64,000 nucleotides of DNA from Sphingobacteriales bacterium (GTDB lineage Bacteria > Bacteroidota > Bacteroidia > Chitinophagales > UBA2359): NCBI GenBank assembly GCA_016718845.1, contig JADKCK010000037.1:1-64000 (forward strand), written 5' to 3'. A program made the position numbers and the translations under genes. The notes below the pieces were generated by a model. It worked only from the letters and a program-made list of their open reading frames with translations, made no database searches and was not told where the DNA came from. Shown here in pieces: positions 6,269 to 59,065 of the stretch. Positions within the stretch are counted from its first letter, which is position 1, and each line of letters starts with the position of its first letter.

Positions 6269-6569
6269 TACGGGATAAATAAAAGCAACCGGGAGTTGGG
6301 CTATCAACAAATACCGAATACCACAATTGACATTGATTGAATACCCGACAATATTAGTTTGTGACTTATATGGGGTAAACTCAAAAAATTTTACCACAGA
6401 TGATTTGACTAACTACTAAGCAACCAACCAAAAAAAACATAGCCCCTATTAATGTGTATTGACTTATTTGGGGTCAGCTATTCTCTGTGTCTTTGTTGTA
6501 AAACACGGTTTAAAAGAAGAAATAACAATTAGCAACTAAAACAATTCATCAATCATCATTCATAAAATT

Positions 6570-10879: not shown

Positions 10880-11704
10880 TTATTGTTCGCTACCATCTAA
10901 ACCTGCATCAATGGGGTCGGTGGACAAGTTATCTTCGGTTAATAGTGTATCGGTGGTGCTATTGGCGGCGGTGCTGCTATTTACCTCAAAACCCCAATCG
11001 CCAAGGCGTTGAGGTTGTTCTCTATACAAACCCAATAGTATGTCGCGCACCGACGATAAGTAAAACCGAATGGTATTAACCGTTTTGCTTGTTTGCCCTT
11101 TGGCAATTCCCAACAACAAATTGCGGCTTTGTGTAGCTGTTTCGCCATCGCGAGCCACCTGCGCGGCTTGCTCAACCAATAGGTTTGCTTGTGCTACTAA
11201 GGCAATTAACCCATCGGCTAATACAGCAGGGATAAGGCTATTTGCTCCATTAGCCGCATGTTTTTTTACGATGATGTCGGCTAAACGGCTTAATTCTTCG
11301 GCATTACGGGGTATCTCTATCTTTATCTCGTTTAGTGGCGAGTTAACCACATAGCCATAAGCGCCCAATTCGCGCTCTTTGCCCCTGTAAATACCCAATA
11401 GATAATCGCGGATAGCCCTAACATAAAAAGTAACGGTGTTGGGGGTATAGCTATTTTGGGTAATGTGTGTACCTAAAGTCAAGTTGCGACTTTCGGTTAG
11501 GCGCTCGGCTTCTTTTTTTAGGTCAATTTGCTCTTCGTTTTTAGTCAGTGCTTGGGTATAAACTGCCTGCATAGGCTGCATAATGCTATTGGGCAGTGGG
11601 CTAAGATTGCCATCTTTGGCGTGTTTTTTTAACACATTGTCTGCCAAAGTCTGCATTTTTTGAACATTTAAAGGTATCTGTACCTTAATTGTTTGATTCG
11701 GCAT
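10880..11704 (-). CDS. hypothetical protein with an internal duplication of an approximately 120-aa domain
   Basis: The two halves align: IPLNVQKMQTLADNVLKKHAKDG...RNLTLG...VTFYVRAIRDYLLGIYRGKERELGAYGYVVNS versus IPRNAEELSRLADIIVKKHAANG...RNLLLG...IRFYLSSVRDILLGLYREQPQRLGDWGFEVNS. The start was placed at ATG 11702-11704. The longer ORF to 12217 only translates the upstream tandem repeats. Confidence 0.5.
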   Translation of the reverse strand: MPNQTIKVQIPLNVQKMQTLADNVLKKHAKDGNLSPLPNSIMQPMQAVYTQALTKNEEQIDLKKEAERLTESRNLTLGTHITQNSYTPNTVTFYVRAIRDYLLGIYRGKERELGAYGYVVNSPLNEIKIEIPRNAEELSRLADIIVKKHAANGANSLIPAVLADGLIALVAQANLLVEQAAQVARDGETATQSRNLLLGIAKGQTSKTVNTIRFYLSSVRDILLGLYREQPQRLGDWGFEVNSSTAANSTTDTLLTEDNLSTDPIDAGLDGSEQ

Positions 11705-11760
11705 CGTAAATAAATTTAAAGTTATTAAAAATGGATTATTATCTATCAAAAATAAAGTAT

Positions 11761-12230
11761 TGAGGGCAACATGAGGTATATTGAGGGCAACATGAGGTAT
11801 ATTGAGGGCAACATGAGGTATATTGAGGGCAACATAAGGTATATTGAGGGCAACATGAGGTATATTGAGGGCAACATAAGGTATATTGAGGGCAACATGA
11901 GGTATATTGAGGGCAACATGAGGTATATTGAGGGCAACATGAGGTATATTGAGGGCAACATGAGGTATATTGAGGGCAACATGAGGTATATTGAGGGCAA
12001 TATATGGGTTGTTGGAGGCAATATATGGGTTGTTGGAGGCAATATATGGGTTGTTGGAGGCAATATATGGGTTGTTGGAGGCAATATATGGGTTGTTGGA
12101 GGCAATATATGGGTTGTTGGAGGCAATATATGGGTTGTTGGAGGCAATATATGGGTTGTTGGAGGCAATACTTGGGTTTAAAGAGGCAATACTTGGGTTT
12201 AAAGAGGCAATGCTCACTCCGCTAGGAGCA
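11761..12230. repeat. 21-bp tandem satellite in three sub-arrays (atgaggtatattgagggcaac x12; atatgggttgttggaggcaat x9; acttgggtttaaagaggcaat x2)
   Basis: Perfect to near-perfect 21-mer tandem copies lie immediately upstream of the 10880..11704 gene. All six frames give spurious repetitive ORFs. Confidence 0.85.
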
Positions 12231-12715
12231 AAATATGGGTAGCAAAGCGTAATATGGGAAACATTTGAACATTAAACACCTTATAGACGTATTTTATTGT
12301 GCAATGGTTGCTTTTGTGGGTAAAAAATGTTTTGGAGTGCGACTATGTTGTTGTTTGCGAGGTACAAACAATTAAAAGGGAGCATTAAATACGCTCTTTT
12401 GAAGATTTGTTAAAAGAAAGATTTTAACATAACTACCTAATAATTAAGCGTTTATGTGTTACAGCAAAATAAATTTAATCATAAATGTACCCAAACACAC
12501 TAAGTTTGCAAAAGTTTTAGTATTTTTGTGCTGAACTGATAGTGGAATTTTAACTCCATTACAAATACACAAAAGCTTTAAAAGGCAGTGTAATTGTAAC
12601 TTTTTATAAACCAGAAGTGCTTGTAACACTTCGCAACAAACCGCTTTTATGAAAGCAAAAATTTTATCCCTTAAACATATTACCCCCCCCCCATATATGT
12701 AGGTTATGGGTAATT

Positions 12716-21944: not shown

Positions 21945-22541
21945 TCACTTTTGGGTATCTAGCCAATGCCACAAATAGCGGGCAGCCATAGAGCGGTTAG
22001 GTTGCCAATTTTGGGCGATGTTTAGTATTTGTTGGTCAAGTTGTTTGCCGGTATCTGTTAGGCTATACAATTTTACAACGGCATTACGAACAGCTAAATC
22101 GTTAATCGGGAAAACATCGGGTCGAGCCAAGTCAAAAATCAGCAACATTTGTGCCGTCCATTTGCCAACACCTTTAATTTGGGTCAGATGTTGTACAATA
22201 TCCTCGTCGCTTAGGGCGTTTATATGCTCAAACGACAAGTTGTTGTACAAAGCAAACTCGGCAATATTTTTTACGTAGTTGGCTTTGGCGTTAGATAAAC
22301 CTACGGTGCGCAACTGCTCGACGGGCATTTGGTGCAATAGCGTTTGGGTGGGATATTGCTCGTGAAAGAGGTTTAAAAATCGGGTAAAAATAACATTAGC
22401 CACCTTGCCCGACAGTTGCTGATACACAATAGCCCTAACAAGCGATAAGTACAAATCGGATTGCAAGGCGGGCGCTTCGAGTGGTGTTAAAGGCTCGATA
22501 GCCGAATGAAAAACCAAATCGTGTGTAAATAGATATTGCAT
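21945..22541 (-). CDS. DNA-3-methyladenine glycosylase II-like (HhH-GPD superfamily, AlkA-like)
   Basis: A helix-hairpin-helix LTQIKGVGKWTAQMLLIF is followed by the catalytic D in DLAVRNAV. The size is 198 aa. Confidence 0.65.
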   Translation of the reverse strand: MQYLFTHDLVFHSAIEPLTPLEAPALQSDLYLSLVRAIVYQQLSGKVANVIFTRFLNLFHEQYPTQTLLHQMPVEQLRTVGLSNAKANYVKNIAEFALYNNLSFEHINALSDEDIVQHLTQIKGVGKWTAQMLLIFDLARPDVFPINDLAVRNAVVKLYSLTDTGKQLDQQILNIAQNWQPNRSMAARYLWHWLDTQK

Positions 22542-22639
22542 AATGCTTAGTTTTTAAAGATTAGTGTGTCCGCTGCCTAATTAGTGGCAAAGATACAAAA
22601 CTAAATGCTTATTTTTATAAAGACATGGAAAAATTACCA

Positions 22640-23232
22640 CATAGGTACATAGAAAAACATAGGAACATAGATGCGTATCAGCTATGTCTCTATGAAAACC
22701 TATGCTTCCTATGTGTCAAAAAAACGGCTGTTTTCTTGTGTAAAGTAAGAATCACCACATAGGTACATAGAAAAACATAGGAACATAGATGCTTATCAGC
22801 TATGTCTCTATGAAAACCTATGCTTCCTATGTGTCAAAAAAAAGCGTGTTCTTGTGCAAATAAAAACACCCCAGGAGCATAGATGCGTATCAGCTATGTC
22901 TCATGAAAACCATGCTTCCTATGTGTCAAAAAACGGCTGTTTTCTTGTGTAAAGTAAGAATCACCACATAGGTACATAGAAAAATATAGCCACCTATTAA
23001 CTATGCTCCTATGAGAACCTATGCTTCCTATGTGTCAAAAAAAATACCACATAGAATCATAGGAAAACATAGACTGCATAGATGAGCATTAACTATGATT
23101 CTATGAAAACCTATGCATCTATGTGTCAAAAAAAATACCACATGAGAACATAGCCACCTATTAACTATGATTCTATGAAAACCTATGCTTCCTATGTGTC
23201 AAAAAAAAACGACTGTGTTCTCTGTATCTCCG
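22640..23232. repeat. modular CATAG/CTATG iteron-like tandem repeat array (array 1), bounded by a TGTGTTCTCTGTATCTCCGTTGTAAGC terminal motif
   Basis: There are 5-6 copies of the core ctatgNNtctatgaaaacctatgcttcctatgtgtcaaaaaaa. They are separated by recurring segments of variable length (ccacataggtacatagaaaaacataggaacatagatgcgtatcag...). Confidence 0.8.
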
Positions 23233-23415
23233 TTGTAAGCTAAACTTTTTTTTTAGGTAACGATACCAAAAGTTCTATTTTCTGAAAATCTTTTTTTACC
23301 TTTACCCGTCTTTTCAGAGCAGGTGTTTTATCGTCATTACAATGTCTTAAAACCCTGTATTTGGGAAGATAAATTAACAATTGCCATTTATATCTCTCAA
23401 TAATAAACAAATTCC

Positions 23416-25182
23416 ATGCTTTTACATAACCGTTACGAATACGACCCACGTATAAACTGGCTTGCCGATGGTAGCTCCTCAAAGGTGTACAAAGCCACCG
23501 ATACGCACAATCAACAAGCAGTGGTACTTAAGTTTTACCACACCTTGGGCAATCTTACGCCCGCCCAGTTTAAAGACAATATGGCTCGCACCATGGCTTT
23601 GCATCACCCAAATTTAGTGCAACTGCACGATTATTTCGAGATAGAAAACATTAACCCCTTTGGGCAACTCGATTATATACGCATTGGCGTTTGGGAGTTT
23701 GTAGCCCATACACCAAATACAACCGACACCGAAAGTATCCTTCGTCAGTCGCTCGATGCTTTACAATATCTACAACAAAACAATACCACACACGGTTCTA
23801 TCACCCCCGAAAACATTTTTACCACCGCCAGCGGGCAAGTAAAATTAAACAATGCAGGGGCTTTTGTCCAAGATATTGATACAACCGCCACCGATTTGCG
23901 CCAATTAGGCGAAGCACTACATTACTCCTTATCGGGTGGACAAGCACTTAGCTTTGACGATACCAACGCCCTTAAGTTAGCACTGCCCGACGACACCCGC
24001 GAAGTGTACAGCATCATCATACAAAAAACAGCCCACGACGATGCCAATATTGGCGATATCACCCATTTGTTGGATACCTACGACCGAGACAAACGCTTTG
24101 ATAAGGTATTGCCACTAACCGAAGCACAGTTCGAAAGCCGCTACGAGCTGCTCGATATGCTCGACAGCAACGACGAACATAGCACCTATCAGGCAAACGA
24201 CAACTTATTGGCTACTGCCGTTACATTGGCTATTTATCATGCACATCCATCTGCCGAGTACTACAACAAATTAAACAAAGCAACCTTAGCCCATTTGTTT
24301 AAAGTACAATTTGGCGAAAAGTTATCGCTTGTAGGTGTGATGCCAACCGCCGAAGAAACCACAAACCCCGTAGCTATCGCCGAACCTGCTATGGGCGATA
24401 CCGCTATTATTGCCGCCGCCGCTACTGTTGCTGCTGTTGAAACACTAACAGCTACAGACAGTAACGAAACCGCAGACAGCGAAAATGCCTTGCCAACAGA
24501 CGATATGCCAACTGCCGCAACAAGCACCGAAACAACCACTACCACCGTTACTACCACTACAACCGACGATGAAGATGCGGGCGAGGATACAGATAGTAGT
24601 TTAGATGAAGAAAACCTACAAGAACCAGACGGTGACGATGACGACGAAACATCGAACAACGAAGATGAAAATGAGTGGGACGACGAAGACGAAGATGAAT
24701 TAGTCGACAACGAGGACAACGATTTTATAGCAGCAGCCGACGAAGGAGATTCGGACGATGAAGACGAAGAAGATTCGGACGATGAAGACGAAGATGATTC
24801 GGACGATGAAGACGAAGATGATTCGGACGATGAAGACGAAGGAGATTCGGACGATGAAGACGAAGGAGATTCGGACGATGAAGACGAAGATGATTCGGAT
24901 GATGAAGACGAAGATGATTCGGACGATGAAGACGAAGATGATTCGGACGATGAAGACGAAGATGATTCGGATGATGAAGACGAAGATGATTCGGATGATG
25001 AAGACGAAGATGATTCGGATGATGAAGACGAAGATGATTCGGATGATGAAGACGAACCACTTAATTTGGTAGTGCCAGACGATGACGACGACGAAGAGTT
25101 AAAACCAACCGAAATTATAAACAGCGAAGCCATGCAGCAAGTACTAAAAGACATGGAACGATTGTTAAAAAACGATGACTAA
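23416..25182 (+). CDS. protein-kinase-like (probably pseudokinase) domain protein with a Thr-rich linker and a long polyacidic (DSDDEDED)n C-terminal tail
   Basis: The N-terminus has DGSSSKVYKATD....AVVLKF (G-loop/VAIK-like) and HPNLVQLHDYFE. The catalytic HRD and DFG motifs are replaced (HGSITPENIF, NAG). The C-terminal 150 aa are almost only D/E/S. Confidence 0.5.
   Translation: MLLHNRYEYDPRINWLADGSSSKVYKATDTHNQQAVVLKFYHTLGNLTPAQFKDNMARTMALHHPNLVQLHDYFEIENINPFGQLDYIRIGVWEFVAHTPNTTDTESILRQSLDALQYLQQNNTTHGSITPENIFTTASGQVKLNNAGAFVQDIDTTATDLRQLGEALHYSLSGGQALSFDDTNALKLALPDDTREVYSIIIQKTAHDDANIGDITHLLDTYDRDKRFDKVLPLTEAQFESRYELLDMLDSNDEHSTYQANDNLLATAVTLAIYHAHPSAEYYNKLNKATLAHLFKVQFGEKLSLVGVMPTAEETTNPVAIAEPAMGDTAIIAAAATVAAVETLTATDSNETADSENALPTDDMPTAATSTETTTTTVTTTTTDDEDAGEDTDSSLDEENLQEPDGDDDDETSNNEDENEWDDEDEDELVDNEDNDFIAAADEGDSDDEDEEDSDDEDEDDSDDEDEDDSDDEDEGDSDDEDEGDSDDEDEDDSDDEDEDDSDDEDEDDSDDEDEDDSDDEDEDDSDDEDEDDSDDEDEDDSDDEDEPLNLVVPDDDDDEELKPTEIINSEAMQQVLKDMERLLKNDD
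24748..25057 (+). repeat. intragenic 24-bp tandem repeat (gattcggacgatgaagacgaagat x~13) encoding DSDDEDED units
   Basis: The period-24 repeat is perfect with only synonymous or conservative variation. It also produces artefactual antisense poly-Ser ORFs. Confidence 0.85.
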
Positions 25183-25350
25183 TAACCGATGATTTGCATC
25201 AGCTACCGTTACACCCTATTTGGTTAGTTTTGTTTGATGCAAACTGCATTTATTTAAGCACCGTATAGTATCCAAAAAAAAGAACGATTTAGCAATGTGC
25301 GTAATACCACTATTGCTAAATCGTCTTTTTTATTCATCAAATCTTTTTGT

Positions 25351-26092
25351 TTATTCGTTCCAAATTGCCCAAGCTGCCTCGGCTTGCAGATGCAGCATAT
25401 CCAAGCCATTTTTTGTTACTGCTCCGTATTTGGCAGCTTGTTGCATAAACCGTGTTTCGGTAGGGTTGTACACCAAATCGTAGCATAAATGATTAGGGCT
25501 AAAAAAATGATAGGGTAGGGCAGGGGCTGCATCGGTGTTTGGATACATGCCCAAAGGCGTAGTATTAACCACAATAGTATGTTGTGCCATTATATGGGCA
25601 GTTATTGCAGGGTAGCTTAACCCATTGTTATTATTATGGTTGTTTGCTTGCCTCGACACTATAGTATACGGGTATACCCAACTTTTGCAATACCCAACAA
25701 ACTGCCTTTGCTGCACCACCATTGCCCAACACCAATGCTGCTTTATGGTGTGCTTGCAATAAAGGCATCAACGATTGTTCAAAACCAATAACATCGGTAT
25801 TATAGCCAATTAAGCGTCCTTGTTTAATTTTAATGCAATTAACCGCCCCAATTTGTTGTACAGCAGGGCTTTGCTCGTTAATATACGCCAACACCGATTG
25901 CTTATAGGGTATAGTTACATTTAATCCACACAAATCGGGGTTTTGTTGTAATAAATCGGGTAGCAAATCAATATGTTCAATAGCAAACAAATCGTAACGA
26001 CAATTTGACAGTTGCTCGCGCTCAAATTTTTGACTAAAGTATTGCCGCGAAAACGAATGAGATAAAGGATAACCAATTAATCCGTAGTGCAT
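25351..26092 (-). CDS. aroE: shikimate 5-dehydrogenase, reading frame broken at about 25650-25720
   Basis: The N-terminal part is MHYGLIGYPLSHSFSRQYF...NVTIPYK...NTDVIGF...LVLGNGGAAKAV. The C-terminal part, in another frame, is ...VNTTPLGMYPN....YDLVYNPTETRFMQQA. The two ORFs 25634..26188 and 25351..25722 overlap. Confidence 0.7.
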
Positions 26093-26400
26093 AAAATAAG
26101 TTGCTAAAATAATGAAAAATGAAAATGGCAGCAGTACAAGTATTGCTACCAACGACAAATACCAATACAAGTATCGGCAACGCCACAAGCTACATCAGAG
26201 CCGATAACAGCAGCAAATAACCATAAAAAAAACAACAAATTTGGGTCAAAAGTTTGCCACTTTTTTGTTTTTAGGCACTTTTGTATCATTTAGTGCCTAT
26301 TTTAGGCTATATTTGCACCTTAAAATGTTAGATTTGTTTATCTACACAAAACAATCAAAAACAAACAGTAAATTATCTTTTACCATTTACCCTTTATTAT

Positions 26401-27744
26401 ATGCTCATGCTCGATTCTTTTTTAGCCTTTATTAAACAACAAAATCTGTTACAAAAAAACGACCGCGTATTAGTTGCCGTTAGCGGCGGCGTAGATTCGG
26501 TGGTGCTGTGCGAGTTATTGCATCGGGCGGGCTTTGAAATAGGCATTGCACATTGCAATTTTGGTTTGCGCGATACCGAGTCGGACGGCGACGAGGCTTT
26601 TGTTATACAATTAGCCATTGAGCATTACCAGTGCCCCTTTTACACCATTAAGTTTGATACGCAAGCCGTTGCCGCACAAATGCAGGTATCTATACAAATG
26701 GCTGCCCGACAATTGCGCTACGATTGGTTAGAAAACCTTAGACAAACCAACGAGTATAAATTTTTAGCCACCGCACACCACCAAAACGACCTTGCCGAAA
26801 CCATGCTCTATAACCTAAGCAAAGGTACGGGTATTGGCGGTTTGCATGGCATCTTGGCAAAAAAAAATAAACTTATCCGCCCATTATTGTTTACCAACAA
26901 ACAATATATCGAGCAATTTGCTTTGGATAATAATTTATCGTATCGCCACGACTCAAGTAACAGCCAAACCAAATATGCCCGCAACAAAATTAGACATTTG
27001 GTGATGCCTGTTTTAAAAGAAATTAACCCCAACTTAGAGCAAACGTTTTACGAAAATGCCCAACGCTTTGCCGATGTTGAAACCATCTACCGACAAGGTA
27101 TTGCCGCCTACAAAAAGCAATTGCTAAAAACCGACCGACACGAAACACGCATCGCTATTTCGCAACTGCTTAACCTACCCGCTTTACCCACTATTTTGTA
27201 CGAGTTATTGCAAGATTATGGCTTTGGTAATGATAGAATTGGCGATATTATTAGGGCATTAGATGCCGAGTCGGGGCGGGTTTTTCTGTCGGCTACACAT
27301 CAATTAGTCAAAGACCGTAAGCACCTTATAATTTCGGAATTGGCAAGCAACGAGGCATCAATTTACTTAATTAACCCAACAGATACCCAAGTAGTGACAC
27401 AACATTTTACCCTTAGCCTACAACGCATAAGCATCGACGAAAGTTTTGTGCCACCAACAAAAGCCCATATTGCCTGCCTCGATACCACCGATTTGGTTTA
27501 CCCCCTAAGCCTACGCCGCTGGACAGAGGGTGATTATTTTTACCCACTAGGCATGAACCGTAAAAAGAAAAAAGTGAGCCGATACCTCATCGACCAAAAA
27601 CTAAACCGCAACGAAAAAGACCGCACATGGCTACTTAGTACCGCCAACGAGCGTACCTTGTGGGTGGTTAATCACCGCCTTGACGAGCGTTTTAAAGTAA
27701 CCCCAAAAACAAAAGAAGTACTTTGGATAACTTTTAGCGAGTAG
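26401..27744 (+). CDS. tilS: tRNA(Ile)-lysidine synthetase
   Basis: The PP-loop SGGVDSVVL is in RVLVAVSGGVDSVVLCELL. The protein is 447 aa. Confidence 0.85.
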   Translation: MLMLDSFLAFIKQQNLLQKNDRVLVAVSGGVDSVVLCELLHRAGFEIGIAHCNFGLRDTESDGDEAFVIQLAIEHYQCPFYTIKFDTQAVAAQMQVSIQMAARQLRYDWLENLRQTNEYKFLATAHHQNDLAETMLYNLSKGTGIGGLHGILAKKNKLIRPLLFTNKQYIEQFALDNNLSYRHDSSNSQTKYARNKIRHLVMPVLKEINPNLEQTFYENAQRFADVETIYRQGIAAYKKQLLKTDRHETRIAISQLLNLPALPTILYELLQDYGFGNDRIGDIIRALDAESGRVFLSATHQLVKDRKHLIISELASNEASIYLINPTDTQVVTQHFTLSLQRISIDESFVPPTKAHIACLDTTDLVYPLSLRRWTEGDYFYPLGMNRKKKKVSRYLIDQKLNRNEKDRTWLLSTANERTLWVVNHRLDERFKVTPKTKEVLWITFSE

Positions 27745-27779
27745 TTTTGGGCAGATATGTAGCATAACCATAGTAAACT

Positions 27780-28490
27780 AAGAAAAACAACAAGAGACAC
27801 AGAGGGCACAGAGAAAAAAAACTCCGTGTTCTCTGTGTCTCCGTTGTAAATAAAATCACCATATAGACAGATAACCGCCCATTAACTATGCCTCTATGAA
27901 AACCTATGTTTCTATGTGTCAAAAAAAATACCACATAGAATTATAGGAAAGCATAGACCGCATAGATGTGTTAAACTATGCCTCTATGAAAACCTATGTT
28001 TCTATGTGTCAAAAAAAATACTACATAGATGGGCATACTGTTTCTATGAAAAACACATAGATCAGTAAAAAAGCCACATAGGTAGGCATTAACTATGTTT
28101 CTATGAAAACCTATGCATCTATGTGTCAAAAAAAATACCACATAGGTAGGCATTAACTATGTTTCTATGAAAACCTATGCATCTATGTGTCAAAAAAAAT
28201 ACCACATAGGTAGGCATTAACTATGTTTCTATGAAAACCTATGCATCTATGTGTCAAAAAAAATACCACATAGGTAGGCATTAACTATGTTTCTATGAAA
28301 ACCTATGCTACTATGTGTCAAAAAAAAACACATAGAATCATAGGAAAGCATAGACCGCATAGATGTGTATTAAACTATGCCTCTATGAAAACCTATGTAT
28401 CTATGTGTCAAAAAAAATACCACATAGGTAGGCATTAACTATGTTTCTATGAAAACCTATGCTACTATGTGTCAAAAAAGAGATGTGTCT
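27780..28490. repeat. modular CATAG/CTATG iteron-like tandem repeat array (array 2), flanked by a GAGACACAGAG...CTCTGTGTCTCCGTTGTAAATAAAA motif at both ends
   Basis: There are 8 copies of a ~50-bp core, aactatgYYtctatgaaaacctatgNNtctatgtgtcaaaaaaaataccacatag. Intervening segments are 9, 35-37 or 62 bp long and themselves recur (gtaggcatt x5; aatcataggaaagcatagaccgcatagatgtgt x2). Confidence 0.8.
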
Positions 28491-28525
28491 CCGTTGTAAA
28501 TAAAAACAACAAGAAGCGCATTAAA

Positions 28526-31500
28526 TTACGCCCCTAGCAGCACAAACCCTGCCCACGATTTAGGCGTAACGCCATGTTGCACCAACAGTTTTCGTTTAGC
28601 AGCCGACAGTGCATTGGCATAAGTTTGGTTATTCAAAATCTCTTCGAACAAATATTGGGTAAGCAAACACGACTCGCGGTCGTACACCTTAAATAGTGTA
28701 AATATGATGTTTTTAGCACCAGCATATAAAAAGCCTCGATTGATAGCCATCATACCCTCGCCCGGGATAAGCTGCCCCAAACCTGTTTCGCAGCAGCTAA
28801 GCACCAATAAATCGGCGCTTAATTCCAAGTGATACGTTTCGTCCATGTACAACATACCTTCTTTTTCGGTTTTGTTGCTCGGCGACAACAATATACCCGA
28901 CAATTTGGGTTGTTGTTTATTAATAATGCCATGGGCAGCAATGTGTACATACTTGTATTTGGGTGCATGTTGCACAAAATTATCGGTCGAGGCATTGGCA
29001 TGTAAAAACAAGCGAGATGGGTCGTGATGTTGTTCAAATAGCTTTTCGATATTTTTTAGTTCCATTTCGGAGTACATCAACTCGCGATACTGGTTTCCGT
29101 TTACTTGTGCTGTTCTAACAGCCGATAAAGTAGTTACATCGTTAAACTCCGATGCCCCCCGCGATAAAGGGCGGTCGTAGGCATAAATGGGTGCAAATCC
29201 AATAAAGTTATTGCTTTGTTGCTCATTTCGCAATGGTTTTAACATACTTTCGGCAAGCAGTGTTACCGAGTAATGATAACTTAGGTGGTAATCGAACAAC
29301 AAATAGGGCAACTCGTTATAATTAGGCGTATTATCGGGCAGGTAGGTAAGCAATGCCTCGAAAGGCAAGTAATACAAGGTTTGGTCGGGTATGATAACCA
29401 ATTGCGGTACAGCGGCAGCGTGTGGCTCGGTACTTTGTGGCAAGCTTTGTAAGATAGGTTGCAGCAATGTTTGGTACAATTGATAACCAAAGGTTACATA
29501 CTCTTCGTAATTTAGGGCATTGAGTGCCTCCGAAAATTCGGCAATTTGCTCGTCTAAATCAATAGGTTTAGGCAGTGTGTGTAATTGATAATGATTAACA
29601 CCAATCGAAAAAACATAAATTAGCTCTTTACCAATCAAGTATTCTATTACTATTTTATGCGGACATTTTTGCAAATGTTGCTGTATGGCAGTAACCGAAA
29701 CAGTTTTTACGTTGTATTTAAGTTGGTAATAATCGGGGTAAGTTTTTTCTAAATTAGCCACTAGTTTTTCGTATGCTTCGGCACATTCAAAACGTTGTTT
29801 TTGTAGATTTTGCAAGTACTCCGATTCTATGCCTTTTATTTGTTCTTTGTACAGTTGTTCGTCGAGGTAGCTCATTGCCAAGCGCAATTGTTTTTCTTGT
29901 TCTAGCAATTGCGGGTCTATGTTTGCCATTATTTTGGCTTCGGCATCTTTAATAGCACTTAACAACAACAAGCTTCGGCTTTTTTCGGCAAACGAAAAAC
30001 ATTTGTACAAATAGCTTATGTTGTTGGTTAGTTGGTACAACTGGTTTGCTACGGCAATACTTTGCTCGTAGATGTGTACATAGTTTTGTACTAAGGTAAG
30101 TTTCGAGCCTTCTTGGCTGTAACTGTGTCGTATCTCGCCAAGTAAATAAACAATGGCCTGATAGGTATCAAAAACTACTTTTAGGTCGTTGATATTGGCG
30201 GTTTGTTGGTGTAGTTGGGTTAAAACTTGTGCTTTGTTTTGCAGTACTTTTAATAAATCAAGGGCAAGGTGGTAATTACCATGAATGGTGGGTGTATCGT
30301 AGATGTTGGTATTGTGGTAATCTACAATTAAACTATTGAGTGCTTTTTGGCAATAAATGGCGGCTTGTTGGTAGTTTTTTTGCCCCATATAGTAGGTAGC
30401 AAGCAAGTTAAAGGTAGTGCCTGCTTCCAGATGAATTTCGTTCAACGAAGTTTTTTCGACCTGCTTCAACGATTTTATTAAGTTAGCGTATGCCTTTTGT
30501 GGTTCATTTAAGCACAAATAACACTCGGCAATAGCATTGTTGCCACTTACCACTAAAGGGTGTTCGCTGCCTACAATAGATTGGTAAATAGCCACCGACT
30601 GTTCGAAATAAGGGATAGCTTGTTTGTATGCTTTGGGATTTTGGGCATACCACCAACCAATTTTTTGTTGTAGCTCGGCAGTGCGTATGTTGTCCGATTT
30701 ATAAAAATCGGACGAGATTTGAAGTGCTTTTTGGTAATAATCAATTTCGGCTTGAGTATCACCCTTTTTACCCACGCATTTACCCATATTTTCGTAGATA
30801 GATACCGTTAGTGGGTGTGGATTGTGGTGAAAAGCAGTTTGTGCTGTATGCACTGCCTGCTGAAAATACAATAATGCTTTATCATAATCGCCCATTTCGC
30901 TATAGCAGCGAGCCATTAATCCCAAGTCAGAGGCTAAAGCAGGTAGTGGTTGATGCTTAATAGTACGACCAATATCTAACGAATAATTAATGTAGTGAAG
31001 TGCCTTTTCGTAGTTCTTTTTCAAAAACCAACACAAAGCCAAACCCATATACGAGCGGCTGTTGTATTCGTGGTGATTGCCCCATAAAGCCACCCCTACA
31101 GCTAATGCTTTTTCAAAATACGGGATACCTAAATCTGCCTGCCTAATGCGCGAATACGACAAACCAATGCCATTGTAGCAACGATTTAATAATACGTGAG
31201 GCTCCTCTCCAAATTTATCTAAGGTAACCTTCAAGCCCATTCTAAATGCGTCAATTCCTTGTTCAAACTCTTCGATGGCACAGTAAGTATTACCCAATTC
31301 TATGTAAATTTCTACAATATTTAGCGGCGTTTGTGGCGTATTAGGAAAAGCAGCTAAGGTTTCTTTCATAAACCTAAGACATTCTATAAATTGCGAAAAC
31401 CGAAAATAAATCTCGTTGATTTTTGCCGCTACACTATAATACTCTTCTAAGTTGTTGGTGGCTGAATAAATGCTCAAGGCTTCTCTATACAACTCAACGG

Positions 31501-34191: not shown

Positions 34192-35993
34192 ATGAAAAAT
34201 ATCCGCAATTTCTGTATTATCGCACACATCGACCACGGAAAATCAACCCTCGCCGACCGTTTGCTCGAACACACACAAACTATTACCGAACGCAAAATGC
34301 AAGACCAATTGCTCGACAATATGGACTTGGAACGCGAACGTGGCATTACCATTAAAAGTCATGCCATACAAATGGACTACCCACACTCCGACGGGCAACG
34401 ATACACCCTTAACCTTATCGACACACCCGGTCACGTCGATTTTTCTTACGAGGTATCCCGCTCTATTGCCGCCTGCGAAGGCGCACTTTTGCTCGTAGAT
34501 GCCACACAAGGCATACAAGCTCAAACCATATCTAACCTTTATCTTGCCATCGACCACGACCTCGAAATTATCCCCATTATCAACAAAATTGATATGGAGG
34601 GAGCCATGATTGAGGAAGTAGCCGACCAAATCATTGAGCTAATTGGCTGTAGCCGAGAAGATATTTTAGAAGCCAGCGGACGTACAGGACAAGGCGTACA
34701 GGGTATCTTCGATGCCATTATCAACCGTATCCACACCCCATAGGCGATGCCGACGCACCCCTACAAGCACTTATCTTTGACTCGGTATTTAATACCTTCA
34801 GAGGTATCATTGCCTACGTGCGCGTAATGAACGGGCGTTTGGCTAAAAAAGATAAAGTACACTTTATAGCCACCAACAAAGATTATTTTGCCGATGAAGT
34901 AGGTATCTTACGCCTCGATATGGAACCCTGCGACAGCCTCGAAGCAGGTAATGTAGGCTACCTAATTACAGGTATCAAACAATCGAAAGACATAAAAGTG
35001 GGCGATACCCTAACCCTAACCAATAATCAATGTACCGAAATGATTAAAGGTTTTGAAGATGTAAAACCAATGGTATTTGCAGGTATCTACCCCATGGACA
35101 ACGACGACTTTGAACCCCTCCGCGACTCGCTCGAAAAATTACAACTCAACGACGCCTCCCTAGTCTTCGAACCCGAAACATCAATAGCTCTTGGCTTTGG
35201 CTTCCGCTGCGGTTTCTTGGGCATGTTACACCTCGAAATAGTACAAGAACGCCTCGAACGAGAGTTTAACATGACCGTTATCACTACCGTTCCAAACGTA
35301 TCGTACTTTGCACAGCTAAAAGGTAAAAGCGCCGAGCGTATCAGCCTACAAAACCCCGCCGATATGCCCGATGTAACCAACATAGAATACATCGAAGAAC
35401 CAATGATTAAAGCACAAATCATCACCAAACCCGAATACATTGGCTCTATCATGTCGTTGTGTTTAGAAAAACGAGGCGTACTACAAAACCAACATTACCT
35501 ATCGCCCAGCCGCGTAGAAATTACCTTCGAGATGCCACTAGCCGAAATAGTATTTGACTTTTACGACAAACTAAAATCCATCTCACGCGGTTATGCCTCG
35601 TTTGATTACCACATGATAGGCTATCAACAATCGGATTTAGTAAAAATGGACATCTTGCTAAACAGCGAAAAAGTAGATGCCTTGTCTGCCCTTGTTCACC
35701 GCTCAAAAGCCAATAGCCTTGGACGTCGCTTGTGCGAAAAACTAAAAGAACTACTGCCACGTCAACAGTTTGTTATTGCCATACAAGCCGCCGTTGGTGC
35801 CAAAATCATAGCCCGCGAAACCATCAGCGCCTTGCGTAAAGATGTTACCGCCAAATGTTATGGTGGTGATATTAGCCGCAAACGCAAACTACTCGAAAAA
35901 CAAAAAGCAGGTAAAAAGAAAATGCGCCAAATTGGTAACGTAGAAGTACCTCAACAAGCATTTATGGCAGTACTAAAACTAAACGACAACTAA
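34192..35993 (+). CDS. lepA: translation elongation factor 4 (LepA), reading frame broken at about 34735-34745
   Basis: [20 protein letters not shown] and DTPGHVDF are in the first ORF. The second ORF continues in another frame ([28 protein letters not shown]...) to the LepA C-terminal domain. The shift occurs in cacacccca. Confidence 0.8.
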
Positions 35994-41094: not shown

Positions 41095-41200
41095 TTGGTG
41101 AAGGGAGTGAAGGGAGTGAAGGGAGTGAAGGGAGTGAAAAGAGTGAAGTGGCGAAATGGTGAAGTGGCGAAATGGTGAAGGGGTGAAATGGTGAAACCTC
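41095..41200. repeat. tandem heptamer/octamer tract (GTGAAGGGA x5, then GTGAAGTGGCGAAATG x2) immediately upstream of the xdh start
   Basis: The tract is gtgaagggagtgaagggagtgaagggagtgaagggagtgaaaagagtgaagtggcgaaatggtgaagtggcgaaatggtgaaggggtgaaatggtgaaacc. Related tracts occur at 10840-10878, 49030-49065 and 52010-52262. Confidence 0.75.
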
Positions 41201-49319: not shown

Positions 49320-49680
49320 AAAATGTCTTGTTGCGCGCTTGCAATGCTACGTTGCGCGCTTGCAATGCTACGTTGCGCGCTTGCAATGCTACGTTGCGCT
49401 TGCAATGCTACGTTGCGCGCTTGCAATGCTACGTTGCGCGCTTGCAATGCTACGTTGCGCGCTTGCAATGCTACGTTGCGCGCTTGCAATGCTACGTTGC
49501 GCGCTTGCAATGCTACGTTGCGCGCTTGCAATGCTACGTTGCGCGCTTGCAATGCTACGTTGCGCGATGCTCGTTGCGCTTGCAATGCTACGTTGCTTGC
49601 AATGCTACGTTGCTTGCAATGCCACGTTGCGCTTGCAATACCACGTTGCGCGCTTGCAATACCACGTTGCGCGTAAAAAA
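49320..49680. repeat. 21-bp tandem satellite (gcgcttgcaatgctacgttgc x~14, degenerating at the 3' end)
   Basis: The repeats are perfect 21-mers with an internal gcgcgc / ttgcaa dyad. All ORFs across it are repetitive artefacts. Confidence 0.85.
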
Positions 49681-50062: not shown

Positions 50063-50676
50063 TCCCGATTTTGACGAAGCCGACGCCGAAGCCATGGGCA
50101 TACGCCAAGATAGTACCCCCATTAACCCCAACGATGCCAAAGCCCATATTACAGGCATTACCGTACTGCCCGACCAAGTAATTATTGATTGGCTAAAAGG
50201 ACAAATGCACGGCGTATTGGTAGAAACAAGCTACGATGGAGCAAACTGGGTAAAACTAGACAAAGACAACCGCTCGCCCTACGAAGATACCCGCAAAACC
50301 AAGTACATCAGCAAGCCGAAACCCGCCATTATCGCCTACGCTATATCTACAAAGACCAATTAGTGGGGCATTACTCCGATGTGGTAAAAGCCGAAGTGGC
50401 TATTTATTAGCTCTTGCTTGTCTATTAGTTATAACCTAAAAAAACAACAAGAAACACCGAGAACACAGAGATGTTACTCTATGTTTTCGGTGTTTTGTTA
50501 TAAAATAACCTTCCTAATGAGGTACAAAAAACAAAGCTATTAACCCCACAGCTAACACAACTACCAATCTTTGCAAAGCTAACCACACATTTGTCGTAGC
50601 ACAAAAAAACATCGTGCAACCATTAAAGCCTTTTAATCATCTACACAGCATCTTATTTACACCAAAATAACAACTA

Positions 50677-52019
50677 ATGAAAAAGATGTTCGCCTTTGTG
50701 CTTTATGTTTTTAGTTTTTGTGTAGCTAATGCACTTACAGCAGCTACCTATTTTCCCCCATGCCAAGCATCGTTTGGCACTATCATCAACCCCAATCAGC
50801 AAGTATTGTGTGCAGGCAGCAACAATACCGAGTTAATTTTGGTAGATGATGCAGCGTTTCCGTACACTACCCTATATTTATTGGTTGATGATGATGCAGG
50901 TATTGTTAGGGCGATGCAGCCAAACAGTATCTTTGCATTGGCAGATGCCGCAGCAGGCTCGTACCACATCTACCCCATAAACCTACTTGCCGAGCAATTG
51001 CCAAGCCTGTACAACTTAGTACAAACTTCATCTACCCCAATAAATACCCTCGATACTATGTTGCAAAACAATAGTGTGTGCTTTGCATTAGATACTGTTG
51101 GTGTAGGTATAGAGGTGTTAGAGCCGCTTGGGTTGTTTATAAACGAAGAGTGTGAGTTTGACTTAGATTACATAGAATTAGTAGTAACTTTCTTTGGAGG
51201 TTATCCACAGTATAATCCAGACTCTGTTTATGCGCTAAATGGATCTTTGAATGGAGAGTTTGTTTATGGAGATACAGTTGTACAATGGTTTGCAGATAAC
51301 GTTATTTATGACTTAATACTTACAGCAGGTGGTTGCGAGGAGGTGTTGATGAAAGAAGATATAGTTACATGTAGTTTGTGCAATAACTATCCAGGTCAGT
51401 TAAACGTAGATACTAGTATTATTTGCAATGGTGTAGTTAGTGTTGATGTAATTGATGAAGATGTAGAAGGGGCTATTTTAGTTTATGTGTTACACAATAC
51501 GCCTCCTTTATTTACTACATCGGATACCTTATTTAATGTATTGGCTATCAACAGCAGTGGTATATTTGACCTAAACAATGTACCTAACCTAATAGAGGGT
51601 GCAACCTATTATCTATCGGCAGTTATAGGGGACGACGGTATTTGGAAAATGGAGTGATTGATGATTATACTGATGGTTGTACAGTGGTGTCGGAGAGTAA
51701 GCAGTTTGTTTACCACACCAATTGCGACCCAATAGGTATCAACACACCAACACATTTGGGTGCATTACAGTTACAATTAAGTCCTGTGCCTGCCCATAAT
51801 GTATTGCAGATAACTTATGTAGCTACACAAAAAAGCACCATAAACGCAGTAGTTTATGATGCTTTGGGTAGCGTACTTGATGTGTTTTGTGTGGCTGCCA
51901 ACGAGGGTAAAGGTACATATCCCTTGGCTATTGATAGCTATGCTTCGGGGATTTATTTTGTGCGGCTAAACGATAGTCAATACAGTGCAGTAGCTAAGTT
52001 TGTGAGGAGGAAGGAGTGA
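50677..52019 (+). CDS. T9SS-secreted hypothetical protein, reading frame broken at about 51645-51657
   Basis: A signal peptide MKKMFAFVLYVFSFCVANA is present. The second ORF (51642..52019) ends with a T9SS CTD (...SGIYFVRLNDSQYSAVAKFV). The two ORFs overlap by 16 bp. Confidence 0.5.
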
Positions 52020-52262
52020 AGGAGGAGGAGCGAAGGAGTGAAGAAGGAAACAGTGAAGGAGTGAAGGAGTGAAGATAAGGAGTGAAGGAGTGAAGATGAA
52101 GGAAGGAGTGAAGGAGTGAAAGGAGTGAAGGAGTGAAGGAGTGAAGGAGCGAAGGAGCGAAGGAGTGAAGGAGCGAAGGAGTGAAGGAGTGAAAACTCAC
52201 CACTTCACCACATCGCAACATCGCAACATCACCACATCGAAAACATCGCCACATCACAACAT
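52020..52262. repeat. tandem GTGAAGGA(G) octamer tract (~20 copies) continuing into CACCACTTCACCACATCGCAACATC... degenerate repeats
   Basis: The tract is gagtgaaggagtgaaggagtgaagataaggagtgaagg.... It belongs to the same family as 41095-41200 and lies between convergent gene ends. Confidence 0.8.
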
Positions 52263-52270
52263 CACCACTG

Positions 52271-52807: not shown

Positions 52808-52889
52808 TGTGGGAAATTTATGGTAAGATTAGATGTGCAGTTTAATAGTATCGAGTAAGGTTTCTTGAAGTTGGTACTTATATTGCTAC

Positions 52890-53085
52890 TACCATAGGCG
52901 ATACAAGTATTGCTACTACCAGAGCAAGTATCGCTATAACATAGGCGATACAAGTATTGCTACTACCAGAGCAAGTATCGCTATAACATAGGCGATACAA
53001 GTATTGCTACTACCAGAGCAAGTATCGTTTACACCATAGGCGATACAAGTATTGCTACTACCAGAGCAAGTATCGCTACTACCAG
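52890..53085. repeat. 47-bp tandem repeat x4 (ataggcgatacaagtattgctactaccagagcaagtatcgctataac) with internal dyad (gcgatac...gtatcgc)
   Basis: Four near-identical units lie in the intergenic region. Each can fold into a short hairpin. Confidence 0.7.
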
Positions 53086-53221
53086 ATGAAGCATCAAAGG
53101 TACGACATAAAAGCAAACGAGCTAAGTAGTTGGCTGAAAAAAGTAGCTACTATATCAAAACACGCTGCCCAATTGTAGTTTGGGCAGCGTGTTTGTGGTA
53201 TAGGTTGTGGGTAATGATAGG

Positions 53222-58665: not shown

Positions 58666-59065
<400 letters not shown>

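Follow-up and report, generated by a model that had tools for sequence, protein, structure and literature searches.

A 64-kb stretch of DNA from an uncultured sewage Chitinophagales bacterium (here called the window) carries two intergenic repeat arrays located 4.5 kb apart. Array 1 (22636-23245) lies between divergent gene starts and array 2 (27786-28505) between convergent gene ends, amid the genes that the first-pass annotation had named, namely, an HhH-GPD gene, a kinase-like gene, aroE, tilS, and a TPR-CHAT gene. In the window, aroE is broken by a 1-nt insertion, and a block of G/C homopolymer junk occupies 58670-59050; both are likely long-read errors.

A unit profile run over the 64 kb found 15 units, all on the plus strand (array 1 has 6 and array 2 has 9), with no further matches outside the arrays at E<0.05. 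The two arrays reported earlier are thus confirmed, as runs of same-strand units. Profile scores are about 80 or 40 to 50 bits on the plus strand and about 25 bits on the minus strand. Moreover, the core CTATGAAAACCTATG occurs 13 times inside the arrays at up to two mismatches, always on the plus strand (0.09 expected), and 85 of the window's 184 CATAG/CTATG pentamers fall within this ~1.3 kb. A fourteenth core match, at 13353, is unrelated.

Both arrays end in a cap motif, TGTGTCTCCGTTGTAA, as had been claimed: it is exact at 27834 and 28484 and has one mismatch at 23223. Of the two solo caps described previously, the one at 6486 stands (two mismatches), while the one near 50440 is better called a related hairpin, since only its left arm matches the cap (two mismatches) and its right arm has diverged. 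The features are as follows.

22595-22610, minus strand: -7 promoter motifs of the Bacteroidota type (TAnnTTTG), belonging to the HhH-GPD gene, immediately left of array 1 (motif scan)
22636-22724, plus strand: unit A1.1, alpha, full palindrome of four CATAG and four CTATG, plus A7 (single-stranded DNA fold, -16.2 kcal/mol, z -4.9)
22725-22753, plus strand: linker A, the cap right arm with an internal deletion (CGGCTGTTTTCTTGTGTAAAGTAAGAATC), present again at 22934-22962 (sequence read directly)
22754-22843, plus strand: unit A1.2, alpha, full, plus A8 (unit profile)
22844-22933, plus strand: linker B (cap-right-arm-like) and unit A1.3, a truncated, degenerate alpha (CTCATG, CCATG)
22963-23044, plus strand: unit A1.4, alpha/delta hybrid, two CATAG and four CTATG, plus A8 (unit profile)
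23046-23135, plus strand: unit A1.5, beta, full (fold z -5.5)
23137-23209, plus strand: unit A1.6, delta, left arm mostly gone, nearest to A2.1, plus A9
23210-23245, plus strand: cap right arm ending array 1 (CGACTGTGTTCTCTGTATCTCCGTTGTAAGCTAAAC; motif search)
27786-27857, plus strand: cap hairpin, with left arm 27786-27813, A8 loop, and right arm 27822-27847, then AAATAAAATC (fold)
27858-27928, plus strand: unit A2.1, delta, also the sole unit at locus 2 in assemblies L025 and L026
27930-28018, plus strand: unit A2.2, beta, near-full (unit profile)
28019-28073, plus strand: unit A2.3, rearranged (comparison among assemblies)
28074-28328, plus strand: four tandem gamma units, 64-bp period, one CATAG and four CTATG each, 97% alike
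28329-28417, plus strand: unit A2.8, beta, full (unit profile)
28418-28479, plus strand: unit A2.9, gamma
28480-28505, plus strand: cap right arm ending array 2, including a 22-bp exact direct repeat with 27834-27855
28512-28535, minus strand: predicted terminator-like hairpin and T-run directly 3' of the TPR-CHAT stop codon
50443-50510, plus strand: solo hairpin related to that of the cap, lying upstream of a plus-strand gene (motif search)

By this terminator prediction, array 2 would lie beyond the end of the TPR-CHAT transcript.

Anatomy of the units

A full unit is ~82 bp long and consists of four CATAG pentamers, a loop, four CTATG pentamers, and an A-run. The founding order runs CACATAG, three further CATAG at 8-10-8 bp spacing, the loop, four CTATG, TGTC, and A6-9, and the cap right arm (~30 nt) often follows 3' of a unit. 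The short repeats of 64 bp comprise a 56-bp unit and an A-run, with most of the left arm gone; TRF delimits them in array 2 as 28067-28335 (4.2 copies), and GTAG occurs only in the gamma-unit loop. Because CATAG is the reverse complement of CTATG, most of the apparent spacers are left arms of imperfect palindromes. The earlier observation that intervening segments recur was correct, with GTAGGCATTAA present in five units, but it missed this origin. Terminal inverted repeats, CACATAG(G/A)...(C/T)CTATGTG, are retained in full and truncated units, as in MITEs.

Full units fold well as single-stranded DNA (z = -4.9 to -5.5), while gamma units fold poorly (z -2.2). Stems are AT-rich helices of 5 to 8 bp interrupted by A.A internal loops, linkers between pentamers are unpaired, and both arms and the runs between units are A-rich on one strand. 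At the 5' end of array 2, the cap by itself makes up an entire 62-nt hairpin (27786-27847; -18.4 kcal/mol, z = -8.6), whose stem on the minus strand is followed by TTTTT. Array 2 reads as cap hairpin, units, and cap right arm, an arrangement of the BOX/BrickBuilt type, and array 1 ends in the cap right arm; the internal linkers of array 1 are deleted forms of that same arm. Subtypes cut across the two arrays: A1.5 is 87 to 89% identical to the beta units A2.2 and A2.8 and 80 to 81% identical to its own alpha neighbors, and A1.6 is 83 to 86% identical to A2.1 and to the L025 delta unit.

Distribution and origin of the clusters

Arrays occupy these two loci in more than 10 independent sewage or wastewater assemblies, where counts vary from 6 to 7 units at locus 1 and from 7 to at least 11 units at locus 2. 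L025 and L026, which are syntenic with the window at 93 to 96% identity, have exactly one unit at each locus, compared with six and nine in the window, so that copy number among near relatives spans 1 to at least 11. The change could be an expansion in the window lineage or a loss in L025. In a sister species, whose TilS is 84% identical, tilS is followed by an ordinary terminator and no unit, and the site orthologous to the third locus has no units either. The exact core pattern has zero copies in GTDB representative genomes.

We propose, with a probability of roughly 60%, that the arrays are clusters of a lineage-specific, noncoding palindromic repeat family resembling MITE, REP, BIME, BOX, and BrickBuilt elements, whose mosaics form by slippage, deletion at short repeats, and transfer of copies among loci. 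Clustered MITE-like elements, offered as an alternative in the first-pass annotation, are the best fit to palindromes with conserved ends, several loci, solo copies, and variable number, and the most likely nature of the arrays is selfish repeat DNA that changes fast, of a type well known in bacteria. Whole units are duplicated in tandem and exchanged unequally, as shown by the four near-identical 64-bp repeats and by unit counts that differ among assemblies. Deletions are likewise evident; with end-points in the repeated CATAG/ACCACATAG motifs, they yield the shortened units (gamma, delta, and 46-nt) and hence the modular look of the arrays. Units were probably also copied from one locus to the other, since beta and delta subtypes are common to both arrays and beta is missing at both loci of L025 and L026. 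Units might be moved by gene conversion or by a trans-acting transposase that recognizes the pentamers. We infer that the arrays need no cellular role; effects on neighboring genes, for instance, through hairpins in read-through transcripts or altered promoter spacing, would be secondary.

An unlikely variant is that the family is a miniature mobile element, still active and self-targeting, each of whose arms presents four phased pentamer sites to an enzyme (a transposase or one of HUH type) encoded elsewhere in the genome. The A-run beside an existing copy would be the preferred insertion site, which would explain both the parallel growth from one unit to six and nine within a single species-level lineage and the shared subtypes, and the arms would resemble the multisite ends of Tn7, Mu, or IS21 or Rep iterons beside a hairpin.

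Some observations weigh against the proposed repeat family. Evidence for its dispersal is thin, consisting of the two loci 4.5 kb apart, one array fragment in L011, and one diverged solo unit in L013, these last being family members at other places. AAAATC stands on both sides of the L025 delta unit, and no consistent target-site duplication is definable, with few independent insertions and A-runs bordering units on both sides. Pfam scans of window open reading frames of at least 120 amino acids detected no transposase or integrase gene, and neither an autonomous element nor a transposase whose ends match those of the units came to light.

It is also improbable that the arrays are binding sites for a host DNA-binding protein with a regulatory, titrating, or centromere-like purpose, where each CTATG would be a half-site and four phased copies would load several protomers. 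Among 11 distinct right arms, none of the 20 pentamer columns is variable, compared with all 6 short-linker columns (Fisher p = 4e-6), although this test is biased toward pentamers, as units were defined, and partly retrieved, via pentamers and most are recent copies. Pentamers also survive in the diverged copies of L011 and L013 despite differing linkers, the four-CTATG right arm is retained even where its pairing partner is gone, and the lack of base-pairing in linkers suits such sites too. Nevertheless, a family with 1 to at least 9 copies at 93 to 96% identity and 0 in the sister species ill fits a tuned regulatory site; the 8-10-8 bp spacing puts sites off a single helix face, the contexts differ (divergent starts versus convergent ends), and no candidate binding protein is encoded near either array. 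A protein that reads CTATG is possible, and it could equally be a transposase or a regulator. The AAAAC linker is perfectly conserved and, along with the conserved pentamers, the one-strand A-richness, and the preferential retention of right arms, hints at constraint beyond a purely selfish model. The suggestion of a replication origin or iterons fails: the scanned open reading frames include no rep or dnaA, cumulative GC skew makes no turn at 22 to 29 kb, and near relatives carry anywhere from 1 to at least 11 copies.

Action of the units as RNA, either as read-through hairpins that stabilize or attenuate mRNA, in the manner of REP elements in E. coli, or as tandem small-RNA genes, is quite unlikely. 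Candidate transcripts would be the tilS 3' untranslated region (UTR) and the 5' regions of the two divergent genes. In its favor, shuffled sequence folds much less well than the full units and the cap hairpin do, same-strand A-richness and asymmetry would be needless for recognition of double-stranded DNA, no terminator is predicted between tilS and array 2, and REP elements reportedly serve as 3' UTR regulators. However, Rfam returned no match above threshold, a motif scan placed no Bacteroidota -7/-33 promoter inside either array, the short, loop-broken stems and the weak gamma folds count against it, and a proper U-tract 3' of the stem is absent on both strands.

An assembly artifact is very improbable. 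The likely long-read errors in aroE and at 58670-59050, the corrupted look of A1.3 and A2.3 beside other assemblies, and the short-read contigs that often break or hold 100-N gaps within array 2 speak for it. L015 and L016 carry an intact unit at the A1.3 position, so consensus errors are possible there in the window, and L001, L003, and L005 have 46-nt and 90-nt units at the position of A2.3, which differs from them. Nevertheless, many independent assemblies, which come from different samples and were built with different assemblers, contain both arrays with their units in the same order. Finally, a degenerate or orphan CRISPR array, superficially suggested by the alternation of partly palindromic repeats and intervening segments, has negligible probability and is rejected on anatomy, as the earlier judgment held: intervening segments recur (five GTAGGCATTAA copies, no unique spacers), are complementary to the repeats, and range from 9 to 62 bp, no cas gene occurs among the scanned open reading frames of the 64 kb, and neither phage or plasmid sequences (for the array DNA) nor viral contigs (for the core pattern) gave a match.

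Short-read assemblies of this abundant Chitinophagales bacterium of sewage break at such arrays, which are mistakable for CRISPR. Since plants and samples vary in how many units are present and in what order, the arrays could serve as a fast-evolving strain marker. Also, two syntenic loci with one unit each in one lineage and six and nine in another provide a clean natural experiment on the growth of bacterial intergenic repeat clusters.

Comparison with known repeat systems

CRISPR arrays share with the window's arrays a regularly recurring, partly palindromic, intergenic layout but differ in having unique spacers, a fixed spacer length, and cas. Plasmid iteron and centromere arrays, such as F sopC with its 12 repeats of 43 bp, are similar in their tandem units of tens of base pairs with short inverted or direct motifs; however, they adjoin rep or par genes and keep a stable copy number, whereas the arrays described here lie among chromosomal housekeeping genes, have 1 to at least 11 units, and lack a partner gene.

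BOX elements of Streptococcus pneumoniae (boxA-boxBn-boxC) are modular and intergenic and form stable predicted hairpins. The arrays resemble them in being intergenic mosaics with a variable number of internal modules, complementary end modules, and stable hairpins. They differ in sequence and phylum, boxB is not made of phased pentamers, and the end module of the arrays recurs between internal units.

REPs are palindromes of 20 to 40 bp tagged at one end with GTAG or CGTC (PMC3733652), and those of Proteobacteria alternate in orientation within BIMEs and depend on a RAYT transposase (Y1 HUH). The likeness to REP, BIME, and REPIN systems lies in extragenic palindromes arranged in mosaics with recurring linkers, fast strain turnover, and possible roles at mRNA 3' ends. 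In contrast, array units measure 56 to 82 bp, end in CACATAG/CTATGTG with no terminal GTAG or CGTC tag, and all share one orientation (15/15). The 64-kb window has no RAYT gene.

BrickBuilt of Porphyromonas gingivalis is a MITE with an internal minisatellite, in which a leader, tandem repeats, and a tail are always intergenic (Klein et al. 2015, PMC4596501). Its bricks are 23-nt direct repeats with neither hairpin nor spacers, its leader and tail reach ~300 nt, and ISPg elements of the IS5 family share its terminal inverted repeats (PMC4596501). Common to both are the phylum Bacteroidota, intergenic location, variable tandem repeats between conserved flanks with inverted-repeat ends, often partial copies, narrow host range, and no internal transposase. 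The brick of the arrays, however, is a 56- to 82-bp palindrome of phased pentamers, flanking caps measure only ~30 nt, and there is no known parent IS; the resemblance to BOX and BrickBuilt is one of architecture only, with no sequence homology. If a dedicated enzyme turns out to recognize the invariant CTATG pentamers, the family would be a Bacteroidota counterpart of the REPIN-RAYT system; if not, it would be ordinary selfish or neutral repeat DNA.

Repeat units and their caps

The two repeat regions reported by the first-pass annotation were confirmed. The core CTATGAAAACCTATG occurs in 13 copies across both arrays, all on the + strand, against a chance expectation of 0.09, and the window has 184 CATAG/CTATG pentamers, 85 of which fall within about 1.3 kb. 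A profile made from full units recovered 15 + strand units in the 64 kb, six in array 1 (A1.1 to A1.6) and nine in array 2 (A2.1 to A2.9), and the same search of the whole 64 kb returned no further unit outside both arrays at E<0.05. The main features are as follows.

22636-23245, + strand: array 1, six units by profile search
27786-28505, + strand: array 2, nine units by profile search
28074-28328, + strand: four tandem repeats of the shortened gamma type, by TRF

CATAG is the reverse complement of CTATG, a point that the first reading overlooked. The full unit has the layout ACCA-CATAG-n3-CATAG-n5-CATAG-n3/4-CATAG, loop, CTATG-n3-CTATG-AAAAC-CTATG-n3/4-CTATG-TGTC-A6-9 and is an imperfect 82-bp palindrome with a mirror spacing of 8-10-8 bp. 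Units A1.1, A1.2, A1.5, and A2.8 are full, and A2.2 deviates solely by one degenerate left pentamer, TATAG. Folded as single strands, full units give z scores of -4.9 to -5.5, while short units are weak (z = -2.2). The linkers between pentamers are unpaired (A.A mismatches) and A-rich on the + strand in both arms. Units are polar, scoring ~80 bits on the + strand versus ~25 bits on the - strand, and 15 of 15 lie in the same orientation.

Shortened units have lost parts of the left arm. The 64-bp gamma repeat consists of a 56-bp unit plus an A8-9 run and retains one CATAG and all four CTATG, whereas delta units keep only the outer end of the left arm. Deletion end-points fall in repeated CATAG or ACCACATAG motifs, as in a 46-nt unit found in the related contigs L003 and L005. 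The intervening segments, which had been described as recurring, do so as left arms of units or their remnants.

The hairpin module that caps the arrays is complete at the 5' end of array 2 (62 nt; fold z = -8.6), and its right arm is found again after the last unit of each array; linkers within array 1 are internally deleted cap right arms. The cap motif was verified at the array ends where it had been claimed (23223, 27834, and 28484). The solo copies held up in part, with a weaker match at 6486 and, near 50443, a diverged relative of the cap hairpin. Cap arms GTCTCCGTTGTAA (window) and GTCTCGGTTGCAAA (contig L010) weakly resemble the IS5-type terminal repeats of Porphyromonas gingivalis MITEs, a likeness that may serve as a lead only.

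The genome is unusually rich in repeats. Other tandem repeats of the window lie at 11758-12199, 49330-49673, 52005-52268, 52881-53116, and 41098-41196; their types are 21-bp repeats in 11 and in 10 copies within an ORF of unknown function, 21-bp repeats in 11-16 copies (GTTGCGCGCTTGCAATGCTAC), an 8-bp repeat in 24 copies, and a 47-bp repeat in four copies with a small hairpin (TATCGCTATAACATAGGCGATA).

Genomic setting and variation between assemblies

Proteins identical to the window's TilS and UvrB are encoded in two MAGs and many assemblies from sewage or wastewater. Named TilS relatives are labelled Chitinophagales, and the only relative among GTDB representatives in a scan with TilS is a Flavobacterium protein of 39% identity. 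The region is chromosomal housekeeping DNA, with uvrB, an HhH-GPD glycosylase gene, a kinase-like gene with an acidic repeat, aroE, tilS, a TPR-CHAT gene, and lepA, and it also has genes for purine catabolism and for cargo proteins of type IX secretion. Array 1 separates the starts of two divergent genes and array 2 the ends of two convergent ones. Immediately beyond array 1 is a Bacteroidota -7 motif belonging to the HhH-GPD gene; a scan for this motif found none inside either array. A terminator-like hairpin lies directly 3' of the CHAT stop codon, beside array 2. Scanning for sigma-70 promoters and terminators gave fewer sites than in shuffled sequence, with no terminator-like site within the arrays.

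The kinase-like gene (23416-25182) has only a partial Pkinase match, confined to the N-terminal 150 residues, and the C-terminal end of its protein is encoded by a 13 x 24-bp repeat (24739-25056) specifying DEDDSDDE-type acidic tracts. Short-read contigs break at this repeat, and the protein measures 588, 594, or 599 aa across strains.

At least nine assemblies contain array 2 with its units in the same order and with differing numbers of gamma units: L003 has seven units in total, L005 eight, the window nine, and L001 at least 11. Short-read contigs are frequently broken or carry 100-N gaps there. Array 1 was found in L015, L016, and L017, and the third unit differs in each. In contig L010 (2249-2373; SRR11088415), TilS is identical and the sequence departs as soon as the cap left arm ends (…CACAGAGAAGAACGAGATTATG…GTCTCGGTTGCAAAC); judging from this short stretch, before the contig ends, it may be another locus 2 allele.

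In the window, aroE (25351-26188) is split at 25670 by a 1-nt insertion (GGG versus GG in L001), and lepA (34192-35993) falls into two ORFs, where related contigs have a single 600-aa gene. Both breaks are probably long-read indel errors, and units A1.3 and A2.3 and the exact lengths of A runs should therefore be treated cautiously. A block of ~380 bp (58670-59050) consists nearly entirely of long homopolymer runs of G, C, or T (e.g., G30 and C29), is overlapped by several mutually exclusive ORFs, and looks like sequencing or assembly junk rather than biology.

Relatives and copies elsewhere

Contigs L025 and L026, from two JGI samples, represent a near relative that is syntenic with the window at 93-96% identity and has one unit per locus. 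At locus 2 of L025, the 225-bp intergenic region holds a cap hairpin, a delta unit, and a shortened cap right arm. At locus 1, a single alpha unit is interrupted by an unrelated 287-bp insert with CATAG on either side, which could be a 5-bp target duplication or, alternatively, a deletion site in the window lineage. The insert (865-1150) contains three small GC-rich hairpins of the CACCCCTTCGGGGT type, and the window has no copy of it. In L025, a gene of the FGE-sulfatase family (11361-12260), absent from the window, additionally separates the phosphoesterase gene from lepA. In the sister species (TilS 84% identical), tilS has an ordinary terminator and no unit after it, and lepA is the next gene.

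Within the window, A1.5 is 87-89% identical to A2.2 and A2.8 and only 80-81% identical to its alpha neighbours, and A1.6 shares 83-86% identity with locus 2 delta units. Beta units, the second full subtype, are missing from both L025 loci. From the subtypes common to both arrays and the lack of beta units in L025, we infer that units were copied between loci and that the two loci changed in parallel within one lineage, either by expansion in the window lineage or by contraction in that of L025.

Nothing in the whole window reaches Rfam gathering thresholds, and a permissive Rfam scan of 22400-28700 gave only chance-level matches (E of at least 0.18), far below gathering scores. The exact core pattern has no match in GTDB representative genomes or viral contigs and three in metagenome contigs, L012 among them; array 1 had no blastn match in plasmid or phage collections. 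A census with spurious ORFs translated from the arrays gave 52 candidates, of which 0 scored. Contig L011 holds a third family locus, where part of an array lies downstream of a gene for an outer-membrane protein; units are missing from the corresponding site of the sister species. L013 is a diverged solo copy from another organism. In L011 (1330-1350), the CATAG unit is preceded, at a distance of a few tens of base pairs, by the motif GATGTGGTTTGCC(C)TAA, which also occurs ~60 bp upstream of the unit in the unrelated contig L013 (reverse strand), whose unit also has similar GTGGCRTGGTTTGC copies on its flanks. In the window, the motif is not enriched (seven loose matches versus two expected).

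L012 is an L025-type allele of locus 1 rather than an independent insertion, which argues against a mobile composite that would include the 64-bp block at 23242-23305. In L012 (334-810; sample ERZ650309), the gene next to the conserved 64-bp block beyond locus 1 is not the kinase-like gene but one for a 158-aa XRE-type HTH protein, a gene-content difference adjoining the repeat locus. Upstream of tilS in the sister species (L022, 1-450) there is a different repeat (period ~180-200 bp) in which TAGATAGGCATTGGCTATG occurs three times. This motif is similar to the gamma unit's inner hairpin and loop (CATAGGTAGGCATTAACTATG), and by that resemblance the repeat may be a distant relative of the CATAG family.

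Explanations and known systems

We favour, with a probability of roughly 0.6, the reading that the arrays are a lineage-specific palindromic repeat element forming mosaic clusters. Two demonstrated processes shape them: whole-unit slippage or unequal exchange, changing unit number, and short-repeat-mediated deletions, shortening units. Copying between loci would be a third, inferred step, and the candidate movers are a trans-acting transposase or gene conversion. The arrays would require no cellular function. A miniature element that targets itself, has multi-site ends, and relies on a dedicated enzyme is unlikely, if worth keeping in view.

That the arrays are protein-binding sites ranks next and is likewise doubtful. 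Varying columns number 0 of 20 in pentamers versus 6 of 6 in short linkers (11 distinct right arms; p = 4e-6), a test weakened by pentamer-based ascertainment and recent copies; the right arm also persists without its partner arm, yet a range of one to nine units, with none in the sister species, ill suits a tuned site. Behind it comes a role as RNA hairpins in read-through transcripts, an improbable one: the A-richness is strand-asymmetric and no terminator is predicted after tilS, but the stems are weak and interrupted, internal promoters are lacking, and there is no U-tract. Neither reading excludes a repeat element, and a pentamer-reading protein could be the transposase.

Given the recurrence of both arrays across many assemblies, an assembly artefact is highly improbable. 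A CRISPR array can be dismissed, as the first-pass annotation had already judged: its defining features were not found, the intervening segments being unit arms or remnants, and array 1 and the core pattern had no phage or viral match. The region has no cas, replication, transposase, or integrase gene, and the GC skew does not switch at the arrays, which speaks against the earlier suggestion of a replication origin.

The repeat family is real and well delimited; it is of a familiar kind, and the searched collections contained no match to it. Two of its traits are mildly unusual: hairpin arms composed of four phased pentamers, and parallel change, from one unit to many or the reverse, at two loci of one species. 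The arrays lack the defining features of origin iterons. Their units differ from REPs in size and in the GTAG/CGTC tag and from BIMEs in not alternating in orientation, although REP/BIME clusters show a looser architectural likeness. Terminal inverted repeats are present, as in MITEs, and to that extent the earlier MITE-like alternative agrees with the favoured reading. Pneumococcal BOX elements are close in architecture, and closest is BrickBuilt of P. gingivalis, an invariably intergenic element in which 23-nt tandem repeats stand between a leader and a tail (PMC4596501).
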